A stretch of 30,116 bases of DNA from a virus. Its lineage: Duplodnaviria; Caudoviricetes. Position numbers and translations under genes: made by a program. The notes under the pieces are model-generated. The model was not told the origin of the DNA and did no database searches. It saw nothing but the letters and a program-made list of their open reading frames with translations. This document shows, in pieces, positions 1-17,048 of the stretch; the first letter of the stretch is position 1; the number at the start of each line of letters is the position of its first letter. The stretch lies in the IMG/VR virus record IMGVR_UViG_3300031519_000146, positions 1 through 30,116 of that record. One strand, written 5' to 3'.

Positions 1-2367
1 CTCTTTCCACTCGACAACAAACATCGTTACAGGATCTTGATACGCAGGTATCTGTTCGTGTGCGTAGAAACTTACGATATAATCAGGTCCAATATATCCA
101 TAGATTTCTGCATCAGTGCCTGTGTAACTACCTGTACTCGTTACAGGAGTAGTCCAAGAAGCATCTGCATACAACACACCAGTATTTCTACCTGTAATGA
201 ACAAGTAAACGTCAGATGTAGAAAGCGTCATACCTTCAAAACCATCAGACTTAGTAGTGCCGTCATTGTTTCTTACTTTGTATTGACCACCCGCCGGGTT
301 TGCACCAAAAGTTTTTATATATTTTTCTGGCAATGTGTGTCGATCAGCCGTCAAAGTAATCCCTACAGGATTCGTCACAGCGATTGCCTCACCACCAGCA
401 AAACTTCCGGTGGTAACAAAAGGTCTGATTTCTACTGTAGTTCCATCTGTAATTGCATGAACATGACTTCCCGCAGGAATGTTTGTGCCCGTAATAGAAC
501 CACCTATTAGAAACCCAGCGGTAGCAGTCACTTTAACTGTCAGACTATTACCTGCGTCTGCTAAGGCAGTTGTGTTTGCCACAGTCGATGGTACAACAGT
601 TGTTATCGGGTCTGCACAAGTTCCACCATCGTCTGACGCTTGTTTCCACGCACCATTCTGCAATCCGATAAAAGTATCCGAAAGTGATTTCTCACTTCTA
701 CCAATAGACATATCTTCAAAAAGTCGTGTTGCATCAGAACCGACTGCTGCTTCGTAGTTAAACCCTGAAGTCGAGGCACGCAAAGTGGTGCCTGGAATAT
801 CTGTCCAAGTATGATTATGATGAACCGTATTAAGAGATGCTCTCCAATGAACGATTGCTTCTCTGTTTAAACCCGCCTGGGTTACAGGATTACTAACGTT
901 AGCATCATAAGAGATGTTCGTAATCTTTGTAGGAATAACAATAGAGTGGTTGGTATCTACTCCGTTATCTGCAAGAGGTTGAATGCCCATAGAGAACAAG
1001 TATTGGAAATCAGCTCCATCTACTGCTTGGTGACCTGTTGAGTAACTCTTTTGCGATCCTAATTGTTTTATGTCAATATCCGTTTCTGTCCAAACTGCTT
1101 GACTGAACTCACGAATATACACGTCATTATTACTAATTGCTGTTGGTGTAGGTGTCAATGCACTCCATACTGGGTTTGCATCCAATTCGGATTGTTGATA
1201 TCCGTAAACTGCGCTACAACAGGGTAGGGATATCGTCTGGTTCATAGGAAGAACATTACGATTGTCGTGATAGTATTCGTGGATAACTACACGTTCACCA
1301 TTATGGAAAGTTCCAAAACGAACTCTTCCCGCACCATGCCATTGATGATCAATCCAATATTGATTGTTCTTTGCAAGATCTAATAACATGCCACTTGGAT
1401 TTAATCCGCCCTTAGCACCATTAACTAAATCTTTGTTGAAGGTTTCAATACCCAGAACAGTTGCAGTCGTAGCATCAGAACATGCGAGGAACGTATCTAC
1501 TTTTGCTCCAGAGTTAGAATTTCTTCGTTCTAGGTAAAGTACTCCATCAGGACCAACATGAAACATAAATCCGTTCTTCGAATCAAAAACACCGAATCGT
1601 CTACTCGCTCCATTATTAGTAGGAGCATTAACTGTTCCAGCATCACTAAACAAACAAGTACCCATGAATAGATGAGAAGATCCTGCCACGTATGAGTGAT
1701 ATGTTTTTGCTGTTGCCGTAGCGATATCCGAGGGGTTTTTAACTGCAACATCTACATAACGCCCAGTTTCATTAAAGGTCACGTAGGAGGTCTCACTTCC
1801 GTAAATCGCACTAGCACCCGCTTGAGCCGCTACTGTAGAAAAATTATTATCAAGAACTTCCTTAGCAGAAAATACATAGTCACCTAAAAGAGTTGCGCCA
1901 GATGTTCGCAACTTACCCCATGCGTCTAACTGTGGTTGCCCTTCAGCAAATCGTACATTAGCAGATCCGAGAACGTCAATATCAAGACCATGTTCTGGGT
2001 TATCGTAACCCATAATGTTTTGAGTAGGAATGTACACGTCATTTGCCGAAACGACTTGGCCCACAGTAATACCGTCTAGCGAAATAAGAGAATCGGCAGT
2101 AGGTTCAATATTTTCAAATTTATTAGCTTTGCTGTAGTGAACTGACAGAATACCTGTTCCATTTTTTCTATCATACACACCATGAATGTGTACTAGACCA
2201 AAACCTGCAACTGTATACCTCTCTCCAATTTCCCAAGTATGAGGACCATAGAGTGACCCTGCATCTTCACCACCATTAGAAAACGCAATCTCGGCAGCAT
2301 GTATCATGTATATACGGTCGCCAGTACTCTCCGGTGGTATTCTAGTATATCTCTTTTCTCCGCTCAT
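1..2367 (-). CDS. Large beta-rich putative virion/appendage protein, >=789 aa, 3'-partial (runs off the left edge); absent from the supplied ORF track
   Basis: ATG at 2367-2365 overlaps the TGA of the 191-aa ORF (ATGA) and is preceded by AAGGA. Manual translation is open to base 1: MSGEKRYTRIPPESTGDRIYMIH...QLDAWGKLRTSG...RRFGVFDSKNGFMF...YWIDHQWHGAGRVRFG...MFVVEWKE. The protein is Gly/Thr/Ser-rich, as expected for a structural protein. Confidence 0.85.
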   Translation of the reverse strand, partial: MSGEKRYTRIPPESTGDRIYMIHAAEIAFSNGGEDAGSLYGPHTWEIGERYTVAGFGLVHIHGVYDRKNGTGILSVHYSKANKFENIEPTADSLISLDGITVGQVVSANDVYIPTQNIMGYDNPEHGLDIDVLGSANVRFAEGQPQLDAWGKLRTSGATLLGDYVFSAKEVLDNNFSTVAAQAGASAIYGSETSYVTFNETGRYVDVAVKNPSDIATATAKTYHSYVAGSSHLFMGTCLFSDAGTVNAPTNNGASRRFGVFDSKNGFMFHVGPDGVLYLERRNSNSGAKVDTFLACSDATTATVLGIETFNKDLVNGAKGGLNPSGMLLDLAKNNQYWIDHQWHGAGRVRFGTFHNGERVVIHEYYHDNRNVLPMNQTISLPCCSAVYGYQQSELDANPVWSALTPTPTAISNNDVYIREFSQAVWTETDIDIKQLGSQKSYSTGHQAVDGADFQYLFSMGIQPLADNGVDTNHSIVIPTKITNISYDANVSNPVTQAGLNREAIVHWRASLNTVHHNHTWTDIPGTTLRASTSGFNYEAAVGSDATRLFEDMSIGRSEKSLSDTFIGLQNGAWKQASDDGGTCADPITTVVPSTVANTTALADAGNSLTVKVTATAGFLIGGSITGTNIPAGSHVHAITDGTTVEIRPFVTTGSFAGGEAIAVTNPVGITLTADRHTLPEKYIKTFGANPAGGQYKVRNNDGTTKSDGFEGMTLSTSDVYLFITGRNTGVLYADASWTTPVTSTGSYTGTDAEIYGYIGPDYIVSFYAHEQIPAYQDPVTMFVVEWKE

Positions 2368-2983: not shown

Positions 2984-4942
2984 TTATGGGAAAGTTGTGC
3001 CTTGACTATAGTTTCTTTCAAGTGCAGACGTTAGTGTTACTGATGAGGTCTTGTCCCTCTTAATAGTTCCAGTAGCTCGTACCCACTGACTCTTTTCTAG
3101 ACCGATACCAATAACCGTTACAGGAGCATCAGTACCACCAGTACCGCCGCCACGTTGAACGTTAGTATCATAATCGAACTGGTGTGCGACAAAGTTTCTT
3201 TCATTCGGGGTATTGGTCGGATTAACAAGTCCGGTCATATCTCCTGGGCTAGGGTCAACGTGATCTACTAGAACTGCGTTGATTTCTCCATAATTTTCAT
3301 TAGCACCACCAGAGGTAGTAAAGAACACATAGTACTTAGAGTAAGGATCTTGCTTCAAGTTATCCCCAAAGTTAATTGTAAACAATGCAACGAAGTTAAA
3401 CTCTCGTACCGTCCCAGAATAGTCAGTAAACTGAATCGAGTTGGTATCACCACTAGCGAAAGAATCAATGTATACGCCTGTTGAGGTTAACAGAGTAGGA
3501 CCAACGAAAGTTAAAAGCTTATCAGCAGTCTTACCGATTACAACTCCTGGAGCCGCTGTGTCAATATCTGTTGCTTTTCTTAGCTGTGCCTGTACAAATT
3601 CGTAAGTATAGAAAGTACTGGCGTCACCATCATTAGCATTTGCAGTGCCTGTATCAGCATCAATAGCTACGTTGAAAGCATACCAGTTATCTGTATTAAT
3701 CTCTCTTTCAAAAGTGTACGAAGAATAACTTACGTTACCATCAGAACCACCCGCTAAGTCTGTAGCATCTCCTGTAGAAGTTCCTGCTGCAGTAACAATA
3801 AACCATCGAGCCGGAGTATTAGTGTCTTGTACAACGTCGCCGATAATGTAAGCAGTTCCTGTACCCCACACTCCTTTAATATCTGATAAAGTAACACGAG
3901 CATCTCCGCTGTCTCTAGAATAAGTGATATTCATAGCACCGTAAAGGTCTAATTGTACAGCAGCGGTACTGGTAGCACCTGATTCAGAACCTGCTACAGT
4001 AAACGAAGTCGTAGTAGGAGCACCTGTTACTACTAAGGAAGCTCCATTATACCCCGCAGTAGTTGAGCCAGTAATTGTCACAACATCATCTGTGACTAAC
4101 CCGTGGACTGTAGTACCAGTAGTATAAGTCTGAACCGTACCCGTACCAGTGATGGCTGTAATAAAGGCAGCAGTATTGTTAATCACTTCTTCTGCGTGAG
4201 TTACATTCAAATCGGCTGCATTAGTAAGCGGGAATCGATATGCTTGGAAAGTAGCGACAGTAACACCAATATCGGTAAAAGCTGCAACTCCATAAGTTTT
4301 CTTCCACTCTCGTACAAACATCTTGAAGTAAGTTTTCAGAGATAAGTCTGGAGAAGGAGCGACATCGAAAATTTGAACCGCCTGGTTAACCTTTCCTTTA
4401 AGAATAAAGTTAGTAGTATTATCAGTGGTTTCGTCATCTGCTTGCTGGTAATAAACTTGGTCAGTAGCCGCCAAAGATCCAAGAGAGATAACACCTGCCC
4501 ATTCTTCAGTAGTAGTACCCCCCACATTAACAACCTGCCACCCACCTGTACGTAGAAGTTCTATAGTGTCTGCCTCAATACCATCTGTTCCAGACGTTCT
4601 TGTGGGAGAAACAGCTTGGCCTCTATCCCAGTTCCAACCATTAATCATTTCAAACTGTTCGTCTGTAATTGGACCCATAGGGAAAGGGAATTTAATTAAG
4701 TCTACATCGTCTTTCCAAATATCTTTTAATTTAGAGTATACTGCTTTAATTGTTGCTCCATCATTAGTTAAGTTACTAGGAGAGGCGGATGACCCAACGT
4801 AAAGACCAATAAGTTTATTTACATAGTCAATTACGATTTCTTCTGTGGGAACACCGGCCCATGTAGCTGCAATATCCGTACTTTTTATATACGACATTTT
4901 GTCGGGGTCGACAATGGGATTTTCTGTATAGTTTGTGGCCAT
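2984..4942 (-). CDS. 652-aa beta-rich putative virion structural/appendage protein with inserted small beta modules
   Basis: RBS AAGGA; Thr/Gly/Asp-rich. Contains HGLVTDDVVTITGSTTAGYNG (a small beta module common in phage tail proteins) and WGTGTAYIIGDVV...WFIV (resembles a CBM5/12-type carbohydrate-binding motif). Confidence 0.7.
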   Translation of the reverse strand: MATNYTENPIVDPDKMSYIKSTDIAATWAGVPTEEIVIDYVNKLIGLYVGSSASPSNLTNDGATIKAVYSKLKDIWKDDVDLIKFPFPMGPITDEQFEMINGWNWDRGQAVSPTRTSGTDGIEADTIELLRTGGWQVVNVGGTTTEEWAGVISLGSLAATDQVYYQQADDETTDNTTNFILKGKVNQAVQIFDVAPSPDLSLKTYFKMFVREWKKTYGVAAFTDIGVTVATFQAYRFPLTNAADLNVTHAEEVINNTAAFITAITGTGTVQTYTTGTTVHGLVTDDVVTITGSTTAGYNGASLVVTGAPTTTSFTVAGSESGATSTAAVQLDLYGAMNITYSRDSGDARVTLSDIKGVWGTGTAYIIGDVVQDTNTPARWFIVTAAGTSTGDATDLAGGSDGNVSYSSYTFEREINTDNWYAFNVAIDADTGTANANDGDASTFYTYEFVQAQLRKATDIDTAAPGVVIGKTADKLLTFVGPTLLTSTGVYIDSFASGDTNSIQFTDYSGTVREFNFVALFTINFGDNLKQDPYSKYYVFFTTSGGANENYGEINAVLVDHVDPSPGDMTGLVNPTNTPNERNFVAHQFDYDTNVQRGGGTGGTDAPVTVIGIGLEKSQWVRATGTIKRDKTSSVTLTSALERNYSQGTTFP

Positions 4943-4982: not shown

Positions 4983-6623
4983 TTATTGAGAGCCAAAGTC
5001 ATATTGCCTATCAAAAGTTTGTGCGATCTGAAAAGTGTTATTCGTTGAGCCTAGGGTTACATTTTGCCTAAAAAACTCGTATTCGAGATTATGGCAAACT
5101 ACAAAGATAGGTTTATCTACAGAATAACTATAGCTTAACTTCACGGTTCTATTGCCGGGGTTGTTAGCGTCTGCTTGAGAAGCGGATACTGTGTACCCCG
5201 TGGTTGAATCAGGAGCTGGTTCTGATGCTGCTAGTACATCTTCTATACCGCCCAAAGAAACTGGGGGACTAACAGCGGCATCAATAAATCTTATTTCTGT
5301 ACTAGGAATGATATTGGAAACTGTAAATTCTACTGTTTGCACAATGGTAGTACTTGCTCCAGCACCATTTCGTACTGTTATTCCAGAGCTAATTCCGCTA
5401 ACATTTAGCGTTACGGCTCCTCCTGAATTATTATAGATAGAGGCATCATTGCTAGCATCGGCCCCATATCCTGTAAAAACATTTCCTACAAAACTATAAG
5501 TTCCTGCAGCAGTAATCTCTATCGCGTGGCCCACTCCTCCTGTGTTATTGAACGTGCTATTAGATATGTTACCTGGGTTATTAGAGGTAACGTAAGCTAC
5601 TCCAGAAGTTGTGTTAGGAGAAACTACTGAGATATCAGATAGAGTAGAGGTATTCTGTAGTAAAGAATTCCCATTAATAAACGTGGTTCCGGTCATTGTG
5701 CTGTTTGTATTTAAGGTAATAATATCGGAACCCACATAAGTACCACTAGTATCATCAAAGTTTCCAGTGGCGGAATCTATCGTTAAAGACCATCTTCCCG
5801 TAGTAGTATTAGCAGCCTGAATATTGGCTAGGGAGAACTGACAATCCGTATTTGCTCCTCTCACCGCTATTTCGTAATGACCAGTAGCGACTTTTTCATC
5901 TGCGAAGTTGACTGCAAAAGCCGAATCAACAAAAACAGAAGTAGCTGTACCAGTAGCGGGGCCAATGAAAGCTTTTCCTTTTCCTACGAAAGCACCGTTA
6001 CTAGAACTCCACCAACCCCAGAAATTAGTATCTTCGTCTGCGGCTCTTATTGTTTCCCAAGTATTTGGGGTTCCGGTAGAGCCTCCGTCAGCTCTAACAC
6101 CTAATCCGACAGTTATTTGGTCTACCTGGCAGTTGTTAAAGTTACCCATGATAGAAGTAATAGTAGTAAACTGAAATCCTATCGTATTTACAGCTGATAA
6201 CTGAGCAGGGTTACCCGTAGTAGTAAAACCAGAGGCCGCATCAGCAGTTCTAGCGGGATTCATACATCGAGTAACGAAACCGCCTTTATAGAAACTAGCA
6301 GGAATCGCATTATAAACTACAAAACTATTTGTTTGGGCTATGTAAACTTGTATCCCCGTAGTAGCATCAACAGGAGTTCTAGTGTTTACCCACCCAATCA
6401 CATGATAACCTTCCTCCGTCCCCCCAACAGAAAAGTCTACAGCTCCTCCAGTTAAATTATCAGAAGCTAAAATTTCAGTGGTATTAGACATTTTGTCGCC
6501 TATAGCACCAGTACCCTGCACAAAATCATCATCAGTACTGATGTTTGATCCACCATTTACACCACTGAAGTCGTTTTCAACATCCGCATTTGTAACTACT
6601 CTGCCTACAAGTGTAATAGCCAT
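4983..6623 (-). CDS. 546-aa putative virion protein: N-terminal beta-sandwich, central right-handed beta-helix-like region, C-terminal Ig-like domain
   Basis: Asn/Ser/Thr-rich periodic segment (NISNSTFNN..GHAIEITAAGTYSFVGNVFTGY..IYNNSGGAVTLNV) resembles pectin-lyase-like beta-helices. Its start codon directly follows the upstream stop (TAAATG). Confidence 0.65.
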   Translation of the reverse strand: MAITLVGRVVTNADVENDFSGVNGGSNISTDDDFVQGTGAIGDKMSNTTEILASDNLTGGAVDFSVGGTEEGYHVIGWVNTRTPVDATTGIQVYIAQTNSFVVYNAIPASFYKGGFVTRCMNPARTADAASGFTTTGNPAQLSAVNTIGFQFTTITSIMGNFNNCQVDQITVGLGVRADGGSTGTPNTWETIRAADEDTNFWGWWSSSNGAFVGKGKAFIGPATGTATSVFVDSAFAVNFADEKVATGHYEIAVRGANTDCQFSLANIQAANTTTGRWSLTIDSATGNFDDTSGTYVGSDIITLNTNSTMTGTTFINGNSLLQNTSTLSDISVVSPNTTSGVAYVTSNNPGNISNSTFNNTGGVGHAIEITAAGTYSFVGNVFTGYGADASNDASIYNNSGGAVTLNVSGISSGITVRNGAGASTTIVQTVEFTVSNIIPSTEIRFIDAAVSPPVSLGGIEDVLAASEPAPDSTTGYTVSASQADANNPGNRTVKLSYSYSVDKPIFVVCHNLEYEFFRQNVTLGSTNNTFQIAQTFDRQYDFGSQ

Positions 6624-7073
6624 TTATAACCCCTGTAGTATTTTATACCTGTGTGCAAGTATCGTAGTCGCTGCATGAATAGAATGTAAAGCTCCGAGAC
6701 CCTCTTGCGGAATGTAAACTTTAGTAGAGCCGGAAATTTGTGTAGTATGCCACCCACCAGCAGGACCAAAGATGTACCAGTCCGCGGTATGGTTATAATC
6801 CCAAACACTTGTTTTAGAGTCGTCAGGGTAATCCCAAGGACATACAATTTGAGCAATTGAGCCAGTCATCAAGTCCGTAGCTGCCGTAAGGCTCGTTACT
6901 ACAGTGCTGGAAAAAGCTCTATTAATACCTTCAGGGGTAGACTCAGATAAATTAATAATTATAACATCCGTGAAGCCGCTGGAAGCTACTAGAGAGTAGT
7001 TCCAGGCATCGTTCTTCTTGCCGGACCAAACGTCCGTATCCGAATCTTCATAATAAAAAACAATGCCTGTCAT
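6624..7073 (-). CDS. SPOUT-fold (TrmL/TrmH-like) SAM-dependent methyltransferase-like protein, 149 aa
   Basis: Colinear resemblance to TrmL: MTGIVFY (beta1), ASSGFTDVIII, WYIFGPAGGW (cf. LMFGPETRGL) and KVYIPQEGLGALHSIHAATTILAH (cf. KIRIPM..SMNLSNAVSVVVYE). The size fits a minimal SPOUT domain. Confidence 0.65.
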   Translation of the reverse strand: MTGIVFYYEDSDTDVWSGKKNDAWNYSLVASSGFTDVIIINLSESTPEGINRAFSSTVVTSLTAATDLMTGSIAQIVCPWDYPDDSKTSVWDYNHTADWYIFGPAGGWHTTQISGSTKVYIPQEGLGALHSIHAATTILAHRYKILQGL

Positions 7074-7441
7074 TATGCTATACTACGAGTAACATCTTTC
7101 ACTACTTTTACCTTCCCAATTAAAAGAGTCTGAACTTTCCCAGACCCATCAACTTGTTGAACATCGTAGTTGAAAGTGCCTGGAGTTACTAACTCAGTTG
7201 CGGTTTTACTAGCTGTGATATAAACTATGCCTTGCGAAGCTTCTGTAGGACTAGTAGATATATCAGGGGTAATAGAAACTTGTAATGCCCCTGGATCAGC
7301 ATCATCTATATTATCTTTTAAAGTAAACCAGTATGTAAACCCTGTAATATTTAGAGCTGACCCTGAATCGCTTAAAGTAAGTTTTATGGTCCAATCATCC
7401 CCTCTTACAAGGGGTGATAGGTCTCTGGCCTGATACGACAT
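7073..7441 (-). CDS. BppU N-terminal-like Ig-fold adaptor / baseplate-attachment protein (122 aa)
   Basis: Motifs LVRGDDWTIKLTL..G.ALNITG, GIVYI..., and PGTFNYDVQ..D.SG.V.TLL.GKV.V..DVTR are characteristic of this small phage protein family. Confidence 0.7.
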   Translation of the reverse strand: MSYQARDLSPLVRGDDWTIKLTLSDSGSALNITGFTYWFTLKDNIDDADPGALQVSITPDISTSPTEASQGIVYITASKTATELVTPGTFNYDVQQVDGSGKVQTLLIGKVKVVKDVTRSIA

Positions 7442-7567: not shown

Positions 7568-10500
7568 TTAATATTCGATAGTCGTCCATTCTAACCGTCT
7601 TAGTGTCGCTTGACCGTCATTAGTATTCCACTGCAGTTCAATTGTTCTTGATCCAGAAGCAGGAGTGTATAAAAAAGTATGGCATTCAGTACCAAACCAA
7701 CCATTTGGGAATTCTGCATTGGTTCCTGAAATAGCAACTCCATCAAAGGGATCAAAAATAGTAACAGGTGTACCGGTGGTATCTTGTATTCTCCACCTGC
7801 CCGTACTAGTACTTTGGCCCCCGCTATCAATAGAATAACTCTGGTCTACAATTATCATTGTAGTCCCTCCTGAAGAAGTCCAAGTATGTGAATCTCCCAT
7901 AGAAGAGTATGTAGTGCCTACAACGTCTAGAGTAGATACAGGGTTTACCGCAGTATTTGTTGTGGTATTTATTGTCGGCGCACCACCAGTAGCCGGAGCT
8001 ACCCAATCATAATCAGCACCCGTCCAGCTTAGAACTTCATTTGTTCCAGCAGTACCAGTGTTTAAGTGAGTATCTACATCCGCGTCAGTGTATTGGGTAG
8101 CCCCTGCAGTTAAAAATGTAATTTGAACAGTCGAAGAAGCAGAAACATTAGTAGATCCTGAAGGCCTTATTTCTACAAAACCAGTGATTCCGCTTATCGA
8201 TTTAGTAGTAGGTACCGTATAATCGTAAAAATCAGCAGAGCTAAAAGCTTGAACTATAGATCCATCAATATAGAATTGGTACTCCGGAGAAGTTACCGTT
8301 CCAGAAATAATAGAGGCGGACAGGCGTATGTCTGTAGCTAGCCCTGCTGGGCTCTCTGTATCTGCTCCAGTAAAAGTAGGGTTTTGATTAGAAGCGTCAT
8401 AATCAATACTTGTATCTGTTGCTGAAATAGTTGCGGTGACTCCTTCCGCTCCCGTGATAGAGTTTGAAATATTAAAAGAGTTGGAGGCAGTAGCTTCTGG
8501 TAGGGAAGCCTCTCTTCCTGTAATATCTACTTTTATACTATTAAGGGCTTTGGTAGTAGGTACCGTATAATCGTAAAAATCAGCAGAGCTAAAAGCTTGA
8601 ACTACTATTCCACCTATAGAAAATTCATACTCAGCAGAAACGAAACCAGAAGAATTTGCAAATAATCTAATATCTGTAGCTGCTCCTGCTGGGCTCACTG
8701 TATCTGCTCCGTTAAACTGTGGATTACTTGAACTAGAGTCATATTCTATGCTAAAATCTGTAGCATCATATCCTATAGCTTTTGCCGAAGATTCTTTAGT
8801 TACTATAAAAGGATCGTAAACATAAGCCCCATTAATGTCTTTAGATACTTTCGCAAGAAGAGCGTCTCCAGCAACATCTACTAAAAAAGACGGCTTTTGA
8901 GCGTTCTGTCCCGATCGAGTTCTTAAAAAAGGAGTATTAACAGATAAAGAAGTATCGCTTAATACTTGAGAAACAAATCGATACTCTGAATCTACGGGTT
9001 CTATAGCTCCAGTAGTAGAGCTTACGCGTATAAAGCTTCCTTCTACAAAATCAGCTGTGAAGGTAGTTCCTAAGCCAGTAACTGTTGCACTTCCTTGAGT
9101 AGTCGATACGGTCCCCGTAATATCTAATAATCTATCTGTCTGGGCTTCAGTCCAGTAAGAAAATGAGATAGGATCTCCAGATAAATCTTTAACATTTGTG
9201 TCTACTCTAAGATACACAGCTTTCCAAGGATCCGAATCTCTAGTACTTTTATCGTATAACCAATAAATTTCGTTTCCACTAATAGTTTCAAAAGAGTAGA
9301 CATGCGCTCTACCATCTACACCACCCCCATCTTGATTAGTTGTTTGGATAAGTTTTTCGCCATTATCCGACCAATATACAGCAGATGAATAACCTGTTGG
9401 CCCACCAGAAACGATGTTCGTATACTCCGTGTTTCCTGAATCAAAGTCTATAAAGCTTATAGTGTCTACTTCAGTATTATATAAAGCAGCTACTCTAGCT
9501 TGTGAGTTTATAGCTAAACTAGCTAAACCACCAGAGCTAGAAACACTTTTAGTAGAGCTGGCATTATCAGTAGCTACTCCATAGTTGGCACCTTCATAAA
9601 ACTCGTATATATAGGAGTCCGGAGTAACTGTGTTTCCCCAACATATCCCGAGTATTCCTTCATCAGCGTCAATAGATTTAATTCTAATATTGCCCCCAGG
9701 TGTAGAAGCCTCGTATGCTAAGACGGTTGCTGATTTAGGAATATAAGAAGTAGTTCCGAAAAGAGTATAGTTACCAGTAGTATGCTCGTTCTCATTACCT
9801 GCTTGCCATCCATGAAATCCTGCAGTAAAATTCCAAGAAGACACTAAGTGGCCGCCCGACAAGGAGGCTAAGGGTTCCGCCCAATTAACCTCTGGGTACC
9901 CCGGACTATAAGCAATATGAATCTTACTATTAATAGTGTCTAGAGCAACTCCTTTCTGTATATTTCGACTTGCTGCATAAATCGCGTGTGAGTCGAGTGT
10001 ATTTGAATTAAATCCTGGAGCTTGTAGGTTTGAGTATTGAGAGTGTACTGTTATATCACCGTTTTCGGCAATTTCAAAAACAAAAACAGACCCCTTTGTA
10101 TTGTCCGAAAGCTGCGCGCTGGCGGTCGCGCCTACTCCATCACCGGTAACAGCAACGAGTGGAAGACCTCCACCAGGCAATGGATTACCGTATTGAGTAA
10201 CAGTACCTCCAATAACTTCGCCACTTTGGATCGTTGCTGTTGCTGCTAAGCCGGTATTAATAGAAAATACAAAACTAGCGGTGGTGTACCCACTGCCAAC
10301 AGTTCCAGTACCCACATTGGCAGGCACCAAAACACCAAAAGGGTTATAGGGGCTATCTCTTTGCCACTCTCTAAAATTTATAACTGCGTAGCCGTCTTTG
10401 CAGAAAGACTCGCTTGTCATATTCCAAGCAACACTATTAGTAGTAGCGATGTAGGTATCAAGAAGGCTCCCTGATACTATATCATAGGTTTTTATAGCCA

Positions 10501-13500
10501 TATTGGCTGTATCCAAAGCTACAGCAATACTATCTCTTACAATACCGAAAAGACCGTTTGCAGCTTCAGCTAGTAGCGGATTGCTAACATCCGTTAAAGA
10601 GGTTAAGTCTAAAACTTCGCTGTTGTCACTATTACTAAATACTTTTCCTTTTAAGCAGTAGTAGCTTTCTGAAACGCCTGCTGGCCATAGTTTGTCTAAA
10701 GTAACTTGGGTTGTACCGGTTGAGTTAGTTACAAGAGTTGGTACAAACTCAGGAATAGCTAAGGACTGCTCTGACTGATTTGTTGTTGAATTTAGTACTG
10801 AATAGTCTTCCTTAGAAGGAGGGGTAAATAAATAGTTTTCTTCATTTAAAAACACTTTTCCCGTCAAAGTAGAAAAAGTTTGAGAGGTAGTTAGCACTCC
10901 TCCCTTTGCTAGTCCACCTAATATTCCTCCTACTGACCCCGCAGCGGAAAAGAGATTCTTTGACACATATGACCAGGAGGACTTAATTCCTAAATCATTT
11001 ATAGTTCTAACTCGAATAGTATTATTTCCTCCAGATGCGTTGGGAACTGTAAAGCTTGTAGCGTTCGCAGGAACGTTTACAGTAGTAAAACCTGTATTAC
11101 TATTAGGAGTAGAAAAACTATGTTGCAATTCAAACGCAGATAAATATCTATAAGGAACAGTAATGTCCGTTCCGTTTGTATCTCTAAACGTTTCTGTAGG
11201 GCTTTCCCAAGAAATAACTCCATCAAAAGAGTTAGTTCCTCCAGTACCTGAATTAGCTCCAGAAGGAACGAGCTCTACAGCTACATTACCAGGGCCAGGC
11301 ACCTTATCTCTTCTTCCGGAAACACTAATATAGGAGACTTGAGGGGCTCTTTTTTCTATATCTATTTCATCAAACTTTAGAGAATAATAAGCAGCAGCTG
11401 TTATATTATATACTTCTTCTGTTTCCTCTATTGCTAAAATTCTATAGGGTTTTAAATCTGCATAGGTAGAAGAGGAAGATTTTATAGCCCATATAACATC
11501 TTTTTCTGCAGACGAAGAATAGTTCGCTACTACTGCTATTTCTGTCCCAGAAGTTGCTCCCGTAGAAATTTGCTGAGTCTCGATTCTAGTATTTTTAGAG
11601 AATTGTGTTGCTACATTATTACCAGAGGCATCTGTTAAGTTTGCCGCATCTGTTTGCGAACTAATAGGATTTCCCAAGTTGTCTTCAGTTAAAAGAGCAC
11701 CCCTAAAATAATCTACGCCATTAATATTTGCAGAAGTTTGAGCTAAGTATATGCCTGGCTCCGGAAATATTAAGTATAAGAAATACTCTTCTGAAGATAA
11801 TAGATCAATAGTTCTATCTATTTGTATTAAATTCTGTGTTGATCCGACAACGGTTCTACCACTAAAAATAGTATTTAGTTCGTCTGAGTCCGCTACATTT
11901 ATCAAGTCTCCTGGACGTAAAAATCCGGCATTGATAGAGGTTGAAAAAGAAACTAGCTCTGTTTCATTAATATCGGTAGATAGGGACCACTTACCCAAAC
12001 GTCTTGCCTGAGATTCTGAAGTACACGCAAAAGCAACAAGATCTTTCTTTATTATTCTACCTTGTTTTGCTATATTAGGAACATCGTCTAAAGTGAGAAT
12101 GGTTTGTTTATAGAGCTCTTCCGGATTATTCCAGGTAACATTTACTTGGTTAACTCTTGCCTTTTGACCAGTATAAATATAGCTGAAAGATCCTTCTGAT
12201 ACATTTGCTTTATTAAAAGTGTATACAGGTTCTTTGGGTCTGTCTTGTACTGCTGTAATTTTCCCATCAATCCAATACATCATTCCTCTAAAAACAGAAG
12301 CGAAATCTTTTAATACTTTATAAGCTTCTTGCTGACCTTGTAAATACACATTACAAGTGAATCTAGGCTCTGTTCCTCCTTCACCGTCAGCAACTAATTC
12401 GTCACAATATCTGGCTATTTGATAGAGGGCGTACACATCAACGTCCTCTTCGTTTATGTATTCTCCGAGTCCTATCTCCTTATCAACAAGCAGGTCATAA
12501 AAAATCCACGCAGGATTATTAGTATAAACTTTATAAAAATTAGGGTTGCTCCCCCCTAGACTCTTATCTCCTCTAAAAGTTCCGTCCCAATCTTGGTAAG
12601 ACCCTATGTCGAAACCCGTAGTAATATTTCTAGTGTATAATGCTGAGTTCGATCCTGTTTCTTCTCTAGTAAAGTAGTTTGTGGGTACTTTTACCTTTCT
12701 CCCCCTAACAAGATAACTTCTATTCGGGGGAGTAGGGAAATCTTCGGCCGAAAATCCTGTGACAACATAAGCAGAGTTCGGATAAGTTAATTTATCTAAA
12801 AAGATCGCCTCTACTGTTCTTATTACGCAAAGTCCTTGAAAATTATTATCATCTATTGCGTACTTAGTTAAAGTTTCTGGAGATAATCTTTTTATACCAA
12901 CTCTCCAGTTACTACCTAATTCAGCTATATTTAGAGAGGCGATATTAATTTCAAACTCTGCAGTAAACTTTGTAGCATTCCCTTTTCTATGTACCACTCC
13001 TCTGTTATATCTTGTACCATCAGGATATTTATAAAAATTCTTGGCAGTATTTATATTTCCCGCATCCCAGGAAGGGATTGAGGAAGTGAAGTCTGCTCCG
13101 CCATAATTTCTACCTGTTACTAAGTATTCTTGAGTGGGTGTAATTCCTGGGTCAAAAGTAATCTGAAATTCTGCATAAGTGTCCCTCTCTTCTCCCTCTC
13201 TACCATTATGCCGTAACCCTGCAGGAAACTCTACATTTATCTTTATCTTATCTATTTCTTTTGCGGCATTTTGCCCAAAGTTAAACTCTCCTGCGGTAAT
13301 ATATTTTGTGGCTTGGGTTCCTGCAGTTGCAATATCTTTCTGGTCAACACCTGAACAAGAATCGTGCCACTTTAATTCAAAATTAGGAGCAATTAGATAA
13401 GAAGCAGAAGGCACACCTACAACTTCTGTTATAGGGGGCTGATCGACTTTCCCCGACCTAAAAACAGCAAAAGTATTGTCATATGCCAAATCCTCATTAA

Positions 13501-14140
13501 GATCGGTAGACTTTAGGACGGAAATAGGCTGAGACAGTTTTACGTAAACATTGGTTGGTTGGCCGACATTAACAGAGGCATCTAATACTACAGAAGAGTC
13601 CGATACTTTTGATGATACCTTGCCGATAAAGTCTACAACAACACTTTTTCCTGTTAGACTATTCGGCGGGGGCGGATAGAGTTGATCTAAAAGAACCCCC
13701 GACCAGTCTGTCCCACTTTCGTCCCCTCCTATAACTCTTACTAAGTTTTTTAAAGGGTCATCAAGTTGAGTTGGTCTACCGTTTAATACATTAGAACGAT
13801 ATGAGGAAGTAAAGGAATTAATAGTTTGCCCTACTCCGTCTACCGCTAAAGGTGCTACTGAAGTAATAGTTCCAGCTAGCTGTGCTCCATATATTTGAAT
13901 ATAATAATCACCCGAACTTAAGTCTAAATCTGCAAACAAATTTCCAGCATCAGTTATTAAGTTTCCCGTAACTTTAGCAGTCCCAACTTTATAAGAGTTA
14001 TTGTTATATGTAGAAGAGTCTAATAGAGCAGTATTATTTAAATATACCCCCGCTAGACCATCAACAATCCCCTCTATTTCTCCAGCGGAAAGTAGGTCTG
14101 TTACTACGCCATATTGTTTTTCTGTTTTAACAACCGTCAT
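7568..14140 (-). CDS. Tail tip / central tail fibre protein, lambda gpJ-like, with an extended C-terminal receptor-binding region (2190 aa)
   Basis: gpJ motifs DLLSAGEIEG, YTNNPAWIFYDLL, LYQIARYCDELV.DG.GG.EPRFTCN, ACTSESQARRLGKW and LRPGDLI; an FN3-like domain (ISWESP...IRVRTINDLGIKSSW); position after gpK and gpI; RBS TAAGGA. Confidence 0.93.
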   Translation of the reverse strand: MTVVKTEKQYGVVTDLLSAGEIEGIVDGLAGVYLNNTALLDSSTYNNNSYKVGTAKVTGNLITDAGNLFADLDLSSGDYYIQIYGAQLAGTITSVAPLAVDGVGQTINSFTSSYRSNVLNGRPTQLDDPLKNLVRVIGGDESGTDWSGVLLDQLYPPPPNSLTGKSVVVDFIGKVSSKVSDSSVVLDASVNVGQPTNVYVKLSQPISVLKSTDLNEDLAYDNTFAVFRSGKVDQPPITEVVGVPSASYLIAPNFELKWHDSCSGVDQKDIATAGTQATKYITAGEFNFGQNAAKEIDKIKINVEFPAGLRHNGREGEERDTYAEFQITFDPGITPTQEYLVTGRNYGGADFTSSIPSWDAGNINTAKNFYKYPDGTRYNRGVVHRKGNATKFTAEFEINIASLNIAELGSNWRVGIKRLSPETLTKYAIDDNNFQGLCVIRTVEAIFLDKLTYPNSAYVVTGFSAEDFPTPPNRSYLVRGRKVKVPTNYFTREETGSNSALYTRNITTGFDIGSYQDWDGTFRGDKSLGGSNPNFYKVYTNNPAWIFYDLLVDKEIGLGEYINEEDVDVYALYQIARYCDELVADGEGGTEPRFTCNVYLQGQQEAYKVLKDFASVFRGMMYWIDGKITAVQDRPKEPVYTFNKANVSEGSFSYIYTGQKARVNQVNVTWNNPEELYKQTILTLDDVPNIAKQGRIIKKDLVAFACTSESQARRLGKWSLSTDINETELVSFSTSINAGFLRPGDLINVADSDELNTIFSGRTVVGSTQNLIQIDRTIDLLSSEEYFLYLIFPEPGIYLAQTSANINGVDYFRGALLTEDNLGNPISSQTDAANLTDASGNNVATQFSKNTRIETQQISTGATSGTEIAVVANYSSSAEKDVIWAIKSSSSTYADLKPYRILAIEETEEVYNITAAAYYSLKFDEIDIEKRAPQVSYISVSGRRDKVPGPGNVAVELVPSGANSGTGGTNSFDGVISWESPTETFRDTNGTDITVPYRYLSAFELQHSFSTPNSNTGFTTVNVPANATSFTVPNASGGNNTIRVRTINDLGIKSSWSYVSKNLFSAAGSVGGILGGLAKGGVLTTSQTFSTLTGKVFLNEENYLFTPPSKEDYSVLNSTTNQSEQSLAIPEFVPTLVTNSTGTTQVTLDKLWPAGVSESYYCLKGKVFSNSDNSEVLDLTSLTDVSNPLLAEAANGLFGIVRDSIAVALDTANMAIKTYDIVSGSLLDTYIATTNSVAWNMTSESFCKDGYAVINFREWQRDSPYNPFGVLVPANVGTGTVGSGYTTASFVFSINTGLAATATIQSGEVIGGTVTQYGNPLPGGGLPLVAVTGDGVGATASAQLSDNTKGSVFVFEIAENGDITVHSQYSNLQAPGFNSNTLDSHAIYAASRNIQKGVALDTINSKIHIAYSPGYPEVNWAEPLASLSGGHLVSSWNFTAGFHGWQAGNENEHTTGNYTLFGTTSYIPKSATVLAYEASTPGGNIRIKSIDADEGILGICWGNTVTPDSYIYEFYEGANYGVATDNASSTKSVSSSGGLASLAINSQARVAALYNTEVDTISFIDFDSGNTEYTNIVSGGPTGYSSAVYWSDNGEKLIQTTNQDGGGVDGRAHVYSFETISGNEIYWLYDKSTRDSDPWKAVYLRVDTNVKDLSGDPISFSYWTEAQTDRLLDITGTVSTTQGSATVTGLGTTFTADFVEGSFIRVSSTTGAIEPVDSEYRFVSQVLSDTSLSVNTPFLRTRSGQNAQKPSFLVDVAGDALLAKVSKDINGAYVYDPFIVTKESSAKAIGYDATDFSIEYDSSSSNPQFNGADTVSPAGAATDIRLFANSSGFVSAEYEFSIGGIVVQAFSSADFYDYTVPTTKALNSIKVDITGREASLPEATASNSFNISNSITGAEGVTATISATDTSIDYDASNQNPTFTGADTESPAGLATDIRLSASIISGTVTSPEYQFYIDGSIVQAFSSADFYDYTVPTTKSISGITGFVEIRPSGSTNVSASSTVQITFLTAGATQYTDADVDTHLNTGTAGTNEVLSWTGADYDWVAPATGGAPTINTTTNTAVNPVSTLDVVGTTYSSMGDSHTWTSSGGTTMIIVDQSYSIDSGGQSTSTGRWRIQDTTGTPVTIFDPFDGVAISGTNAEFPNGWFGTECHTFLYTPASGSRTIELQWNTNDGQATLRRLEWTTIEY
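8205..8604. repeat. Perfect 52-bp direct repeat (8205-8256 and 8553-8604, period 348 bp) within a tandem ~116-aa domain duplication in gpJ
   Basis: gtagtaggtaccgtataatcgtaaaaatcagcagagctaaaagcttgaacta occurs twice and encodes VQAFSSADFYDYTVPTT. Confidence 0.9.
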
Positions 14141-14151
14141 TGTATATATCC

Positions 14152-14856
14152 TTAGTACTTATAGTTATAAGAGCTATTCTCAGTGAAAAGATTTTCTGTA
14201 ATTGAAGCGCCATTTCTGGCTACTCCTTCGTTACCCGTTGAATAATTAATGAAACCTGTTGTCTGAAAAGGTGTACCTTGATAGTGAACTGAAATAGGCT
14301 TTCCTCCTATCAACAATTCGCCGTAACAAACAGGAACAGGTAGTCCTTGCTGTGTAGTGTTTACAGGACCATTAAATAAGTATCCCTCATTTTGGCCTGG
14401 ATCTGTCTCGGGCCCAGGAGCTAATAATTCTGAGATACCTGCTAAGGCTAAATTAGTGGCTAACCCAAGTACAGCACTACCCGCAAAGCTTAAACCACCA
14501 CCGGCAGCGGTTGCCCATCCGGCTGCTCCAAATCCACCAGTCAATCCTACTACCGCTATTATTGCGATAGCGGTAAGTATTTTTTTAACTCCTCCCTTGC
14601 TTCCGGAAGGAACTTCTGTTATTATAATATCTTCTTTACCTAGGCCATTTAAAAGTAACTCTTCGGGAGACTCTAAAAACTCCTCCCCTCTTCTTATCTC
14701 AAAGCCTACATCTGCTTCGGCAGCATCTATTAGGTATTGTCTAAATCCTTGCCTTTGGCACTCTATCAATTTAAAAATATCTCTTATATTATTACACTTA
14801 GTACTCCACTTGTTGCCAAATCTTTCTATGCCCCCGACTAAATAAACTGTTTGCAT
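14152..14856 (-). CDS. Tail assembly protein, lambda gpI-like (234 aa)
   Basis: N-terminal ubiquitin-like segment, a Gly/Ala-rich hydrophobic stretch, then YLFNGPVNTTQQGLPVPVCYGELLIG; lies between gpK and gpJ; RBS AGGAGG. Confidence 0.9.
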   Translation of the reverse strand: MQTVYLVGGIERFGNKWSTKCNNIRDIFKLIECQRQGFRQYLIDAAEADVGFEIRRGEEFLESPEELLLNGLGKEDIIITEVPSGSKGGVKKILTAIAIIAVVGLTGGFGAAGWATAAGGGLSFAGSAVLGLATNLALAGISELLAPGPETDPGQNEGYLFNGPVNTTQQGLPVPVCYGELLIGGKPISVHYQGTPFQTTGFINYSTGNEGVARNGASITENLFTENSSYNYKY

Positions 14857-15539
14857 CTAACATACCTCCTTATAAACTTTTTCCAGTCGTAAACAGAATC
14901 TCTGCAAGAGAGCCTGTTGACTGCATGATGTAAAAATACACCTTCCTCTAAATACACCCCGCAATGATTTGGAACTTCTGAGTATATACTAAAAATAATC
15001 CCATCCCCCTTCCTAGGGGAACTAACCTCTACGAACCCAAAATCTGTAAATAAATCATCAAAATAATTTAAGCCTTTTTCCCACCAGTTATCCTCAAATA
15101 GTATTGTTGGAAGCATTAAATCAAATTCTTGTCTGTAGTAATCCCTAACTAGAGAGTAACAATCACTCTCACCAAAAACATAGTCTCTTCCTAGCAAAGG
15201 TTTAGATACATGTTCTGGAGTATAAAAAGTTTTTGTTCCTTCTGGTATAGAGAATATTAAATAGGGTATCCCTAAAAAATTACTAGTTTTCTTGTCTTTT
15301 TCACTAGGATCACTACTTTGATCAGGATGACTATGTACAATAGCGTAGATATCTCCAGATAAGTTTGCTTTTATTATTTCTTCTGCAGGGATTACAAAAG
15401 AATCCTCGGGACTATCAGAAATATTTTCACAAGGTTTCCAATGTATTTTACCCTTTTTATTTACAAGAAGGCCGCAACCTTCTCTTGGATATTCTTCTAC
15501 AAAATGTTTTAATATGTTATTATCTTCGTTGCTGTACAC
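14838..15539 (-). CDS. Tail tip assembly protein, lambda gpK-like (JAB/MPN + NlpC/P60), probable GTG start at 15539 (233 aa)
   Basis: EYPREGCG and VHSHP..S.PS..D (JAB); DCYSLVRDYY, NHCGVY and FLHH (NlpC/P60). GGAGG lies 8 nt upstream of the GTG at 15539. Confidence 0.9.
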   Translation of the reverse strand: MYSNEDNNILKHFVEEYPREGCGLLVNKKGKIHWKPCENISDSPEDSFVIPAEEIIKANLSGDIYAIVHSHPDQSSDPSEKDKKTSNFLGIPYLIFSIPEGTKTFYTPEHVSKPLLGRDYVFGESDCYSLVRDYYRQEFDLMLPTILFEDNWWEKGLNYFDDLFTDFGFVEVSSPRKGDGIIFSIYSEVPNHCGVYLEEGVFLHHAVNRLSCRDSVYDWKKFIRRYVRCKQFI

Positions 15540-16683
15540 CGGGGTATCCTCCGAAGGGAAGCGGGCGACCCTTATTTGACATTTGAAACCTTTTCTTGCA
15601 GGAATTAAGACTCTTTCCACAAATATCAGCATTCTCCATAAAAGTTGGGTCCCCTAGTTGGATGGTTCCTGCAACTATATTTTGACTATCAAAACTTAGA
15701 TTTTTTACTTGATATGGCACATCTATAACACCTGTGTCGCTAAAATAGTCGTTATACCTCTTATCTACGTACCCATCTAGAGTAACAGCAGTTATTACTG
15801 CTTGTGTATTTACTAGCCTAACGTGTTCCCAAGAGGTGGACCCCGAAGTAGGAGAATCAGAAGTAGCCTTTACACAACAAAAAAAGTCTTTTACTGCCGC
15901 AGGACTAAGAGTCCCATCTTCGTTTTTTCGAGTAGTAGTAGAATCGATATATACTCTATCAAATTTACTATAGCTTCCTGCCACGTACAAAATAAAGTCG
16001 TCTTCATCGAGAGGCACTAGGTACTCGTCATCCTTATTTACGTATACTCCACCACCAAGACTTAGATTAAATAGGTCTGTCCCACCTCCCTTCGCACTTT
16101 CTTGTACGCTATAAGGGCACCCTCCTACTCTGTTTTGAATGAGAACTTCTTTAGCAGCTCCTTTATATTTCCAGCTACACGCCCCTCCAATAATTGATCT
16201 AGAAGGTAGCTTCACACCCGCTAAGTCAAAAGGTGCGCTGAGTTCAAAAGTTACTGTTACAGGATTCTTCTCTTTAATAGTATCAATGATAAAAGTAGTT
16301 TTTGGAAACTCTACTGGGTTGGTATAAGTAACAGAGTCTAAATATTTTTCTAAGGTAGTTCTTCTAGTTATTCTTCTTCCTATTAGATCTTCGAAAGTCA
16401 ATCCACCTAGCTGTTCTGAAAAAACACTTTCAATATTTGCAACTATTAATTCGGGTCTTGAATATACTCCATCACTACTAATATCGAATCCTGTAGCCGT
16501 TAAGGGTAAAGCGACATAAGTTCTAAGAACACTTCCTTCGTCTGGAAAAGTCACTTCTGCTAAATCACCCCCTACGCCTGCATAGAAATAGGCATAAGAT
16601 CCAGGAGAGTACTCTAGATCATAAAGATATATTAGCCCAAATCCCGGCTCTTGTAGTTGTGTTGTTTTTATAATATCAGTCAT
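15520..16683 (-). CDS. Minor tail tip protein, lambda gpL-like, with an internal insertion (387 aa)
   Basis: Motifs SRPELIVAN, DLIGRRITRRTTLEKYLD, VTFELSAPFDL..LPSR and C.W.Y..GC...DICGKSLNSCKKRF..LPFGGYPG, including the four-Cys pattern. Confidence 0.9.
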   Translation of the reverse strand: MTDIIKTTQLQEPGFGLIYLYDLEYSPGSYAYFYAGVGGDLAEVTFPDEGSVLRTYVALPLTATGFDISSDGVYSRPELIVANIESVFSEQLGGLTFEDLIGRRITRRTTLEKYLDSVTYTNPVEFPKTTFIIDTIKEKNPVTVTFELSAPFDLAGVKLPSRSIIGGACSWKYKGAAKEVLIQNRVGGCPYSVQESAKGGGTDLFNLSLGGGVYVNKDDEYLVPLDEDDFILYVAGSYSKFDRVYIDSTTTRKNEDGTLSPAAVKDFFCCVKATSDSPTSGSTSWEHVRLVNTQAVITAVTLDGYVDKRYNDYFSDTGVIDVPYQVKNLSFDSQNIVAGTIQLGDPTFMENADICGKSLNSCKKRFQMSNKGRPLPFGGYPGVQQRR

Positions 16684-17048
16684 GGGTAAACCCTTTTAAA
16701 TGTTGCTGAGCAGGAATAAATATCGAAATCTACGTATGATTGTATAAAGCTTTCACAAACAACGTTTACTGTTTCTTCCGGAGGGCTTATTGACCCATTC
16801 GGAATCACTAAAGGGAAAGATATATGCCCTTTCTTAGAGGATAGAAAAGAAATAATATCGTCTATATCAGCCTTTGCTCTGTTTGTAAAAGCTATATTCC
16901 AGGTCTCTTTTTCATGGTTAATATCTCCCTGAGTTCCTCTCTGAGAAAAGTTATTAACTTTATAGTCAATTTTATCCGTATCAACTTTGGTAGAGAAAAG
17001 TCTGTCTGGTACCCTGTTGGTTACTCCGTCATTAAACCCTAAAGCCAT
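16680..17048 (-). CDS. Stand-alone distal tail protein, lambda gpM-like (122 aa)
   Basis: WNIAFTNRAKADIDDIISFL..KKG..SF...VVCE...SCSATFKRVY; directly upstream of gpL with an ATGA overlap. Confidence 0.8.
   Translation of the reverse strand: MALGFNDGVTNRVPDRLFSTKVDTDKIDYKVNNFSQRGTQGDINHEKETWNIAFTNRAKADIDDIISFLSSKKGHISFPLVIPNGSISPPEETVNVVCESFIQSYVDFDIYSCSATFKRVYP

Follow-up and report, generated by a model that had tools for sequence, protein, structure and literature searches.

An acidic phage protein with a predicted SPOUT fold is tied to a fibre-like virion gene

The gene at 6624..7073 of a virus record encodes an acidic protein, P0001, which is predicted with high confidence to have the SPOUT fold over its full length. 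The catalytic residues of the TrmH class of SPOUT RNA methyltransferases are replaced in its family, and its gene lies directly upstream of the gene for one fibre-like protein, of 546 aa in this record, at each of the related loci examined. Based upon the residues, the charge and this linkage, there is good confidence that P0001 functions in connection with the 546-like protein and not in RNA methylation. It is likely that P0001 serves or modifies the fibre-like protein rather than RNA. The best explanation is that it acts on this virion protein, most probably through SAM-dependent methylation, a putative function that is given a probability of about 40%.

Gene order in the virus record

The window, which is the whole stretch of DNA that was analysed, is the entire 30,116 base virus record, judged to be 32% complete. 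All of the long ORFs are on the minus strand. Upstream of P0001 is a lambda-like siphophage tail module, identified through Pfam and PHROGs, with genes for the tape measure protein, gpM, gpL, gpK, gpI and gpJ. After gpJ the order is the 122 aa gene, P0001, the genes for the 546 aa, 652 aa and 191 aa proteins, and then a phrog_1645 gene. The features are as follows.

25985-29854, minus strand: tape measure protein (Pfam/PHROGs)
17058-25985, minus strand: 2975 aa protein, gpM-like N-terminus fused to FG-GAP, PKD and DUF285 repeats (Pfam/PHROGs)
16680-17048, minus strand: second, stand-alone gpM-like gene (Pfam/PHROGs)
15520-16683, minus strand: gpL (Pfam/PHROGs)
14838-15632, minus strand: gpK with JAB and NlpC/P60 domains (Pfam/PHROGs)
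14152-14856, minus strand: gpI (Pfam/PHROGs)
7568-14140, minus strand: 2190 aa gpJ-like central tail fibre, the end of the tail module (Phage-tail_3, E 7e-22; phrog_31, E 1.7e-132)
7073-7441, minus strand: 122 aa protein, phrog_1084, function unknown, the coupled upstream neighbour (PHROG E 2e-17)
6624-7073, minus strand: P0001, 149 aa acidic protein with a predicted SPOUT fold (ORF, AF2 model, Foldseek, VIA, dN/dS)
4983-6623, minus strand: 546 aa fibre- or spike-like protein, family unknown, the constant downstream partner (homologs at all 25 related loci, near-duplicates included)
2984-4942, minus strand: 652 aa protein, family unknown, the usual third member of the cassette (homologs at related loci)
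1-2367, minus strand: phrog_1645 virion structural protein, cut by the window end (phrog_1645, E 6.8e-22)

The 2975 aa gpM-like protein contains five DUF285 repeats (E 1.8e-78), and a giant decorated gpM fusion beside a normal gpM is unusual in a lambda-like tail. The ORFs of gpL (15520-16683) and gpK (14838-15632) share 113 bases (15520-15632); the true gpK start is probably further downstream than that of the listed ORF.

The P0001 gene and its family

The P0001 ORF, on the minus strand, has an ATG start and encodes 149 aa. It is translationally coupled on both sides, as had been claimed in the first-pass annotation. On the upstream side, the TAA of the 122 aa gene overlaps the P0001 ATG by one base (TAATG) and, on the downstream side, the P0001 TAA directly abuts the ATG of the 546 aa gene. 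The associated claim that the neighbours are of structural type holds for the wider surroundings only, the immediate 122 aa and 546 aa genes being without known function. Against two relatives, the dN/dS of the P0001 gene is 0.077. P0001 is a real gene under purifying selection.

There are 15 D/E and 7 K/R in P0001, the hand count of the first-pass annotation being exact, and the pI is 4.74. The acidity is a family trait: the median pI is 4.86, with 65 of 71 members below pI 6, and the net charge is negative in 71 of 71, ranging from -2 to -17. A profile search of 1.84 billion representative proteins identified 83 relatives at E <= 1e-3, with 57 at E <= 1e-10. Among the matches listed from a word-indexed profile search there are 64 relatives of 132-166 aa, none of which has a precomputed Pfam domain. 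The family is compact, well conserved and known from metagenomes only.

The sole fused form among the 83 relatives is P0099, of 401 aa, in which the SPOUT-like domain occupies residues 251-396. Its N-terminal region has a weak match to Sulfotransfer_2 that is below the cut-off (Pfam E 0.036), and PDB and NCBIfam searches gave no confirmation of a sulfotransferase-type N-terminus. No locus was recovered for P0099.

Predicted fold

An AF2 model of P0001 built upon 71 sequences has alternating strands and helices, a pLDDT of 94.3 and a pTM of 0.89. In a Foldseek search of the PDB with this model there were 46 matches at E <= 1e-3 and, among those listed, all are SPOUT methyltransferases (TrmL, TrmH, TrmJ, CspR, AviRb, the nosiheptide-resistance enzyme and YibK). 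The best of these is TrmL (5co4; E 5.4e-6, TM 0.59-0.65).

A VIA alignment against 48,161 chains placed E. coli TrmH (7edc) first, with Z 14.8, an rmsd of 2.5 and 136 of the 149 residues aligned (model residues 1..149). The next matches are T. thermophilus TrmH (Z 14.3), the TARBP1 methyltransferase domain (13.6) and TrmJ (13.2-13.6). There are 48 chains at Z >= 8, and the best 50 rows are all SPOUT-type or unnamed structural-genomics chains. Lower scores were obtained for Sfm1 (Z 9.0), Trm10 (8.1-9.3) and RlmH (8.5). Among the predicted viral structures of BFVD, the confident matches are two giant-virus rRNA or TrmH methylases, with no phage protein.

SPOUT proteins have a deep trefoil knot in the C-terminal half that holds SAM, and most are homodimers formed through helix 1 and the C-terminal helix. 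The P0001 model aligns to knotted chains over residues 1-149, including the last strand, loop and helix. The TrmL-type SPOUT fold called in the first-pass annotation is thus supported by a model of high pLDDT for which the high-ranking matches, in both Foldseek and VIA, are SPOUT methyltransferases alone.

Sequence searches

P0001 has no match in Pfam (E <= 0.1), PHROGs or NCBIfam, and a phmmer search of the PDB gave chance matches only. For 14 of its relatives there is no Pfam match at E <= 10. When the window was searched in six frames with PF00588 (SpoU_methylase), there was again nothing at E <= 10, the same search having matched in 14 of 14 control genomes. PDB profile searches with the family gave nothing below E 0.2 and, with a deeper profile, nothing below E 0.5. 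A match to the SPOUT domain of TARBP1 in the first of these searches (E 1.2) was gone with the deeper profile.

When compared by hhalign with TrmL, or with an alignment of TrmL, TrmH, TrmJ and RlmB, residues 96-141 of P0001 always align to residues 93-143 of TrmL, a region that spans both C-terminal motifs as well as the final helix. Against the E. coli SPOUT enzymes the scores are non-significant (E 0.06, 0.029, 0.15 and 0.0037; probability at most 8.9%). Of 28 distant members, two have sub-threshold Pfam matches, to SpoU_methylase (E 0.0058) and to Methyltrn_RNA_4 (E 0.0011), the latter of which we take to belong to the SPOUT clan.

Searches for a link to phage tails were similarly sparse. 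A tblastn search of 50,697 phage records gave one match (E 0.01), which falls under an integrase and is due to chance. A feature search of the ESM Atlas returned 'Phage_tail_beta' clusters with a score of 0.91 on only 146 shared features, which was read as context or chance. There is no Pfam, PHROG or NCBIfam match of P0001 to the tail-fibre chaperone families. The full-text literature searched for SPOUT or knotted proteins with phage tail fibres, tailspikes or virions describes no such protein; the co-occurrences of SPOUT and phage found there are of 'spout-like' as a word for shape.

Conserved and replaced residues

Three regions of P0001 correspond in place to the motifs of SPOUT enzymes.

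6996..7058, minus strand: residues 6-26, F-x-x-E-x(4)-D-V-W-S-G-x(3)-D-A-W-x-Y, beta1-alpha1 loop (conservation in 71 relatives)
6750..6773, minus strand: residues 101-108, IFGPAGGW, counterpart of SPOUT motif 2, a knot loop (hhalign register)
6669..6719, minus strand: residues 119-135, VYIPQEGLGALHSIHAA, counterpart of SPOUT motif 3 (hhalign register)

The C-terminal motifs quoted in the first-pass annotation are all present in the translation: IFGPAGG at 101-107, VYIP at 119-122 and ALHSIHAATTIL at 128-139. It had also been noted there that motif 1 of TrmH/TrmL is missing and, indeed, there is no N-x-G-x-x-x-R in the N-terminal part of P0001. The place of the TrmH-class motif 1 (Asn...Arg) is occupied by the beta1-alpha1 signature, which has no conserved Arg; across the 71 relatives, Arg is not the majority residue at >= 80% at any position before 142. 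Within this signature F6, E9, D14, S17, G18, A23, W24 and Y26 are each present in 93-99% of the 71 relatives, with E9, D14, S17, G18, A23 and W24 at 96-99%, Y26 at 93% and, in addition, D22 at 87%. The residues conserved from E9 to Y26 lie in a beta1-alpha1 loop of extended length and in the first part of helix 1.

For motifs 2 and 3 the register comes from a non-significant hhalign profile alignment that agrees with the structural match. With G103 placed at G100 of E. coli TrmL, Ala105 replaces the motif 2 Glu (E102 of TrmL) and, with I121-P122 placed at I122-P123, Ala128 and His130 replace the motif 3 Ser and Asn (S130 and N132 of TrmL). G103 is kept in 71 of 71, A105 in 66 and G107 in 64, while H130 and H133 are each kept in 69. 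G103 and G107 remain at >= 90% even when the most distant members are included; H130 and H133 are not kept in these members. Also conserved in the family are N41 and P79, each at the end of a strand; H95, D98, W99 and Y100, which precede strand 5; and P104, P122, the I-P-Q sequence and R142. According to the secondary structure of the model, the conserved residues map to the C-terminal edge of the sheet and to two knot loops; in SPOUT enzymes it is these two loops that bind SAM, as reported in PMC9508554.

In T. thermophilus TrmH, PMC5372735 reports Asn35, Arg41, Glu124, Ser150 and Asn152 to be essential, with Arg41 proposed as the catalytic centre. The counterparts of these residues, N14, R20, E102, S130 and N132, are the same in all four of the E. 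coli SpoU-class enzymes compared. In the P0001 family all of the PF00588/TrmH-class catalytic residues are replaced: the Asn and Arg of motif 1, the Glu of motif 2, and the Ser and Asn of motif 3. The absence of all five essential residues fits a loss of catalysis as well as it fits new chemistry.

Linkage to the 546-like gene

The related loci were taken from viral and metagenome collections, plus one MAG contig; a scan of genome contigs found none with the close relatives and one MAG contig with the distant members. In 15 of 15 loci whose DNA continues past the SPOUT-like gene, and in 10 of 10 loci with distant members, the gene directly downstream is 546-like, at a gap of -16 to +13 bases. 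The linkage to this gene therefore holds in 25 of 25 loci, although these include the near-duplicates L020/L021, L022/L024 and L039-L041 and the independent cases are thus fewer than 25. The count excludes L032 and L036, which duplicate L031 and L035.

Other members of the cassette are less constant in position. The 652-like gene immediately precedes the SPOUT-like gene in 12 loci, and in the window, L003 and L015 it comes right after the SPOUT-like and 546-like pair. The 122 aa gene of phrog_1084 is found with close relatives only (L001-L004 and L013).

Contigs with the cassette bear sipho-, myo- or podo-like structural genes. L037, which has genes for a tail sheath, a portal and a collagen-like fibre, is a myophage-like contig, and the order within it (L037:5202-12157) is 652-like, SPOUT-like, 546-like, phrog_1645, the last at L037:10055-12157 (E 3.1e-41). 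As a phrog_1645 gene ends the window and also follows the cassette in L037, the mobile unit may comprise four genes. In L006 and L034, terminase, portal, scaffold and capsid genes are directly before the cassette. These differing surroundings, in the window, L037, L006 and L034, show that the cassette moves between phage types. In the Pseudomonadales MAG contig (L030:945-2095), the 546-like protein is 1016 aa, and acetyltransferase and HAD-hydrolase genes are a few kb away.

Over 18 loci, the pairwise identities of the SPOUT-like and 546-like proteins are correlated (Mantel r 0.70, a value attained in 0 of 5000 permutations), which shared descent alone could explain. Between the window and L002/L003 (8001-8447), the SPOUT-like gene has 93% DNA identity and a dS of 0.27, whereas the flanking 122 aa and 546 aa genes have about 75% identity and a dS of 0.92-1.5, that of the 546-like gene being 0.92. 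The low dS relative to the neighbours shows that the SPOUT-like gene has been exchanged or homogenised separately, as a mosaic patch.

The 546-like and 652-like proteins

The 546 aa protein has no Pfam, PHROG or PDB match, and PDB profile searches with the 546-like and 652-like families found none at E <= 1. Among 17 homologs of the two, Pfam gave one weak Beta_helix match, in a 546-like homolog. In the ESM Atlas, the 546-like family forms large clusters that are virus-only. Thr and Ser are abundant in both the 546 aa and the 652 aa partner.

In the genome of phage Rctr197k a 652-like and a 546-like gene lie side by side, and no SPOUT-like gene is present within its 197 kb. The 546-like partner can therefore exist without the SPOUT-like protein. 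The 133 aa gene that follows the 546-like gene in this phage shows no relationship to either the SPOUT-like family or phrog_1084. The Rctr197k 546-like protein keeps 17 of the 34 positions that are invariant in 11 SPOUT-linked homologs, and 10 of its 17 losses are in residues 138-177.

A block of the form G-N-P-x-Q-L ... I-M-G-x-x-N-N ... G-x-G-x-R, at residues 130-177 (window 4983-6623, minus strand; compared with L028:7944-9461), is invariant in the 11 SPOUT-linked 546-like proteins and is decayed in the Rctr197k homolog. From these alignments the block is a candidate contact or modification site, a lead that comes from one SPOUT-less genome.

Possible functions of P0001

If P0001 is a methyltransferase of the fibre-like protein, the knot loops F-G-P-x-x-G and I-P-Q would still hold SAM, and a new active site may have formed at the usual SPOUT cleft from E9, D14, S17, D22, W24, H95, D98, W99, Y100, H130, H133 and R142. 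The substrate would be, by analogy with Sfm1, a basic or amide side chain of the 546 aa partner, in which the invariant residues K44, N138, Q141 and R177 would be the leading candidates. Coupled translation would make both proteins together, allowing the enzyme to meet its substrate during folding. Methylation is favoured because the conserved residues are in the cofactor cleft, because the knot-loop glycines persist in the most distant members, and because the acidic, aromatic N-terminal loop recalls that of Sfm1. The lack of significant SPOUT homology at the sequence level counts against it, as does the low dS of the SPOUT-like gene (0.27, against 0.92 for the 546-like gene), which shows that it is exchanged independently of the supposed substrate. 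The occurrence of the partner without a SPOUT-like gene in Rctr197k and the loss of H130 and H133 in the most distant members also speak against it. Against methylation of the Sfm1 kind in particular, P0001 has no C-terminal domain, and the match to Sfm1 is below those to the RNA enzymes. A fuller version, that this is a phage SPOUT enzyme methylating a receptor-binding virion protein, and hence a second protein-directed SPOUT lineage, the first outside eukaryotes, that is mobile with its substrate through sipho-, myo- and podophages, is put forward tentatively and is more doubtful than methylation of the partner as such.

It is nearly as likely that P0001 is a non-catalytic partner, in which the activity was lost and the fold was put to use as a chaperone of assembly, an adaptor or a minor component of the virion that binds the conserved N-terminal part of the 546 aa protein. 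The replacement of every TrmH-class catalytic residue is consistent with this, as are the decay of the 130-177 block in the sole 546-like homolog that is SPOUT-less and the correlated identities of the two proteins, though for the latter shared descent could suffice. Strict adjacency and coupling to one fibre-like gene are also seen in fibre-chaperone pairs, and PMC10579305 reports host-recognition cassettes of a fibre and its chaperone that move between phage families. Conservation in P0001, however, is gathered in the cofactor-cleft loops rather than spread across the surface, there is no match to a chaperone family in Pfam or PHROGs, and separate exchange of the SPOUT-like gene would not be expected for a co-adapted binding pair. 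Known fibre chaperone genes are usually downstream of the fibre gene, whereas genes of the P0001 type are upstream. A third possibility, to which only a small chance is given, is that P0001 transfers a methyl or other SAM-derived group to a sugar on a virion protein, or to a small-molecule precursor, rather than to the protein chain. The conserved site contains many Trp, Tyr, His, Asp and Glu residues, a composition typical of sugar-binding sites, and the Thr and Ser content of the partner proteins, the Sulfotransfer_2-like region of P0099 and the acetyltransferase and HAD-hydrolase genes near the cassette in the one MAG contig would be in keeping with glycan chemistry. Yet Pfam and PHROGs identify no glycosyltransferase genes in the window, the sulfotransferase hint comes from one sub-threshold protein that may be a gene-calling fusion, and, apart from RNA ribose, no sugar is known to us as the substrate of a SPOUT enzyme.

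It is very improbable that P0001 is an ordinary, divergent TrmL-like RNA methyltransferase with a host or phage tRNA or rRNA target, its location among tail genes being an accident. The top structural matches are to the RNA 2'-O-methyltransferases TrmH, TrmL and TrmJ, and the sub-threshold Pfam matches of the two distant members are to RNA methyltransferase families. Against this, the catalytic Arg and the motif Asn, Glu, Ser and Asn are absent, the charge is negative in every family member, no tRNA-related genes are identified nearby by Pfam or PHROGs, and the adjacency to the 546-like gene is too constant to be accidental. The view taken in the first-pass annotation, that this is not an ordinary RNA methyltransferase, is supported by the replaced TrmH-class residues, the acidic family and the single virion gene found at all of the loci.

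SPOUT enzymes are generally treated as RNA methyltransferases, and the P0001 family has the predicted fold without the catalytic residues of the RNA enzymes. If P0001 is active, this would point to post-translational methylation of phage host-recognition proteins and to new SPOUT chemistry; should methylation of the partner be its function, phages would be altering the chemistry of their own apparatus for host recognition. An inactive P0001 would show clearly that a knotted enzyme fold can be taken over for a structural or assembly role. Either way, a function for P0001 would annotate three large virus-only protein families that are now without function.

Comparison with known systems

The nearest systems in predicted structure are TrmH, TrmL (YibK) and TrmJ (7edc, 1v2x, 5co4 and 6qkv; PF00588), which the P0001 model resembles over the whole chain (Z 14.8-11.2, rmsd 2.5-3.1). 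TrmL is likewise a minimal single domain, of 157 aa against 149 aa, and the TrmH-class knot-loop patterns F-G-P-x-x-G and I-P-[QM] are in register with those of P0001. Unlike the TrmH class, P0001 has no significant sequence match to these enzymes and its catalytic and motif residues are replaced. It is also acidic, where the TrmH class is basic and binds RNA, its beta1-alpha1 loop is longer and has a motif of its own, and its gene is within a virion module rather than among housekeeping genes.

Yeast Sfm1 is described in PMC9508554 as the single known SPOUT exception that is directed at a protein. Its active-site surface is reported to be negatively charged, with Glu9, Trp15 and Glu19 binding the target arginine (PMC4860837, PMC9508554). 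P0001 shares with Sfm1 (5h5d) the predicted SPOUT fold (Z 9.0), negative charge, by composition in the case of P0001, an N-terminal loop that in the P0001 family has E9, an aromatic residue at 16 and D14/D22, and a probable non-RNA role. The two differ in that Sfm1, a monomer, depends on an additional C-terminal domain, and there is no sequence relationship between them. The SPOUT domain uses all of the 149 residues of P0001, and therefore there is no extra domain of the Sfm1 type.

In the fibre-chaperone cassettes described for an Alteromonas phage in PMC10579305, as in the P0001 loci, a small gene is locked to a fibre-like gene and the pair moves between phages of different morphotypes. P0001 differs from the fibre chaperones in being unrelated in fold and sequence, in being encoded upstream of its partner, and in conserving a cleft of the enzyme type. 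What is new in comparison with all three is a SPOUT family with a virion-linked role, for which there is good confidence that the function is not on RNA and is tied to the 546-like partner.
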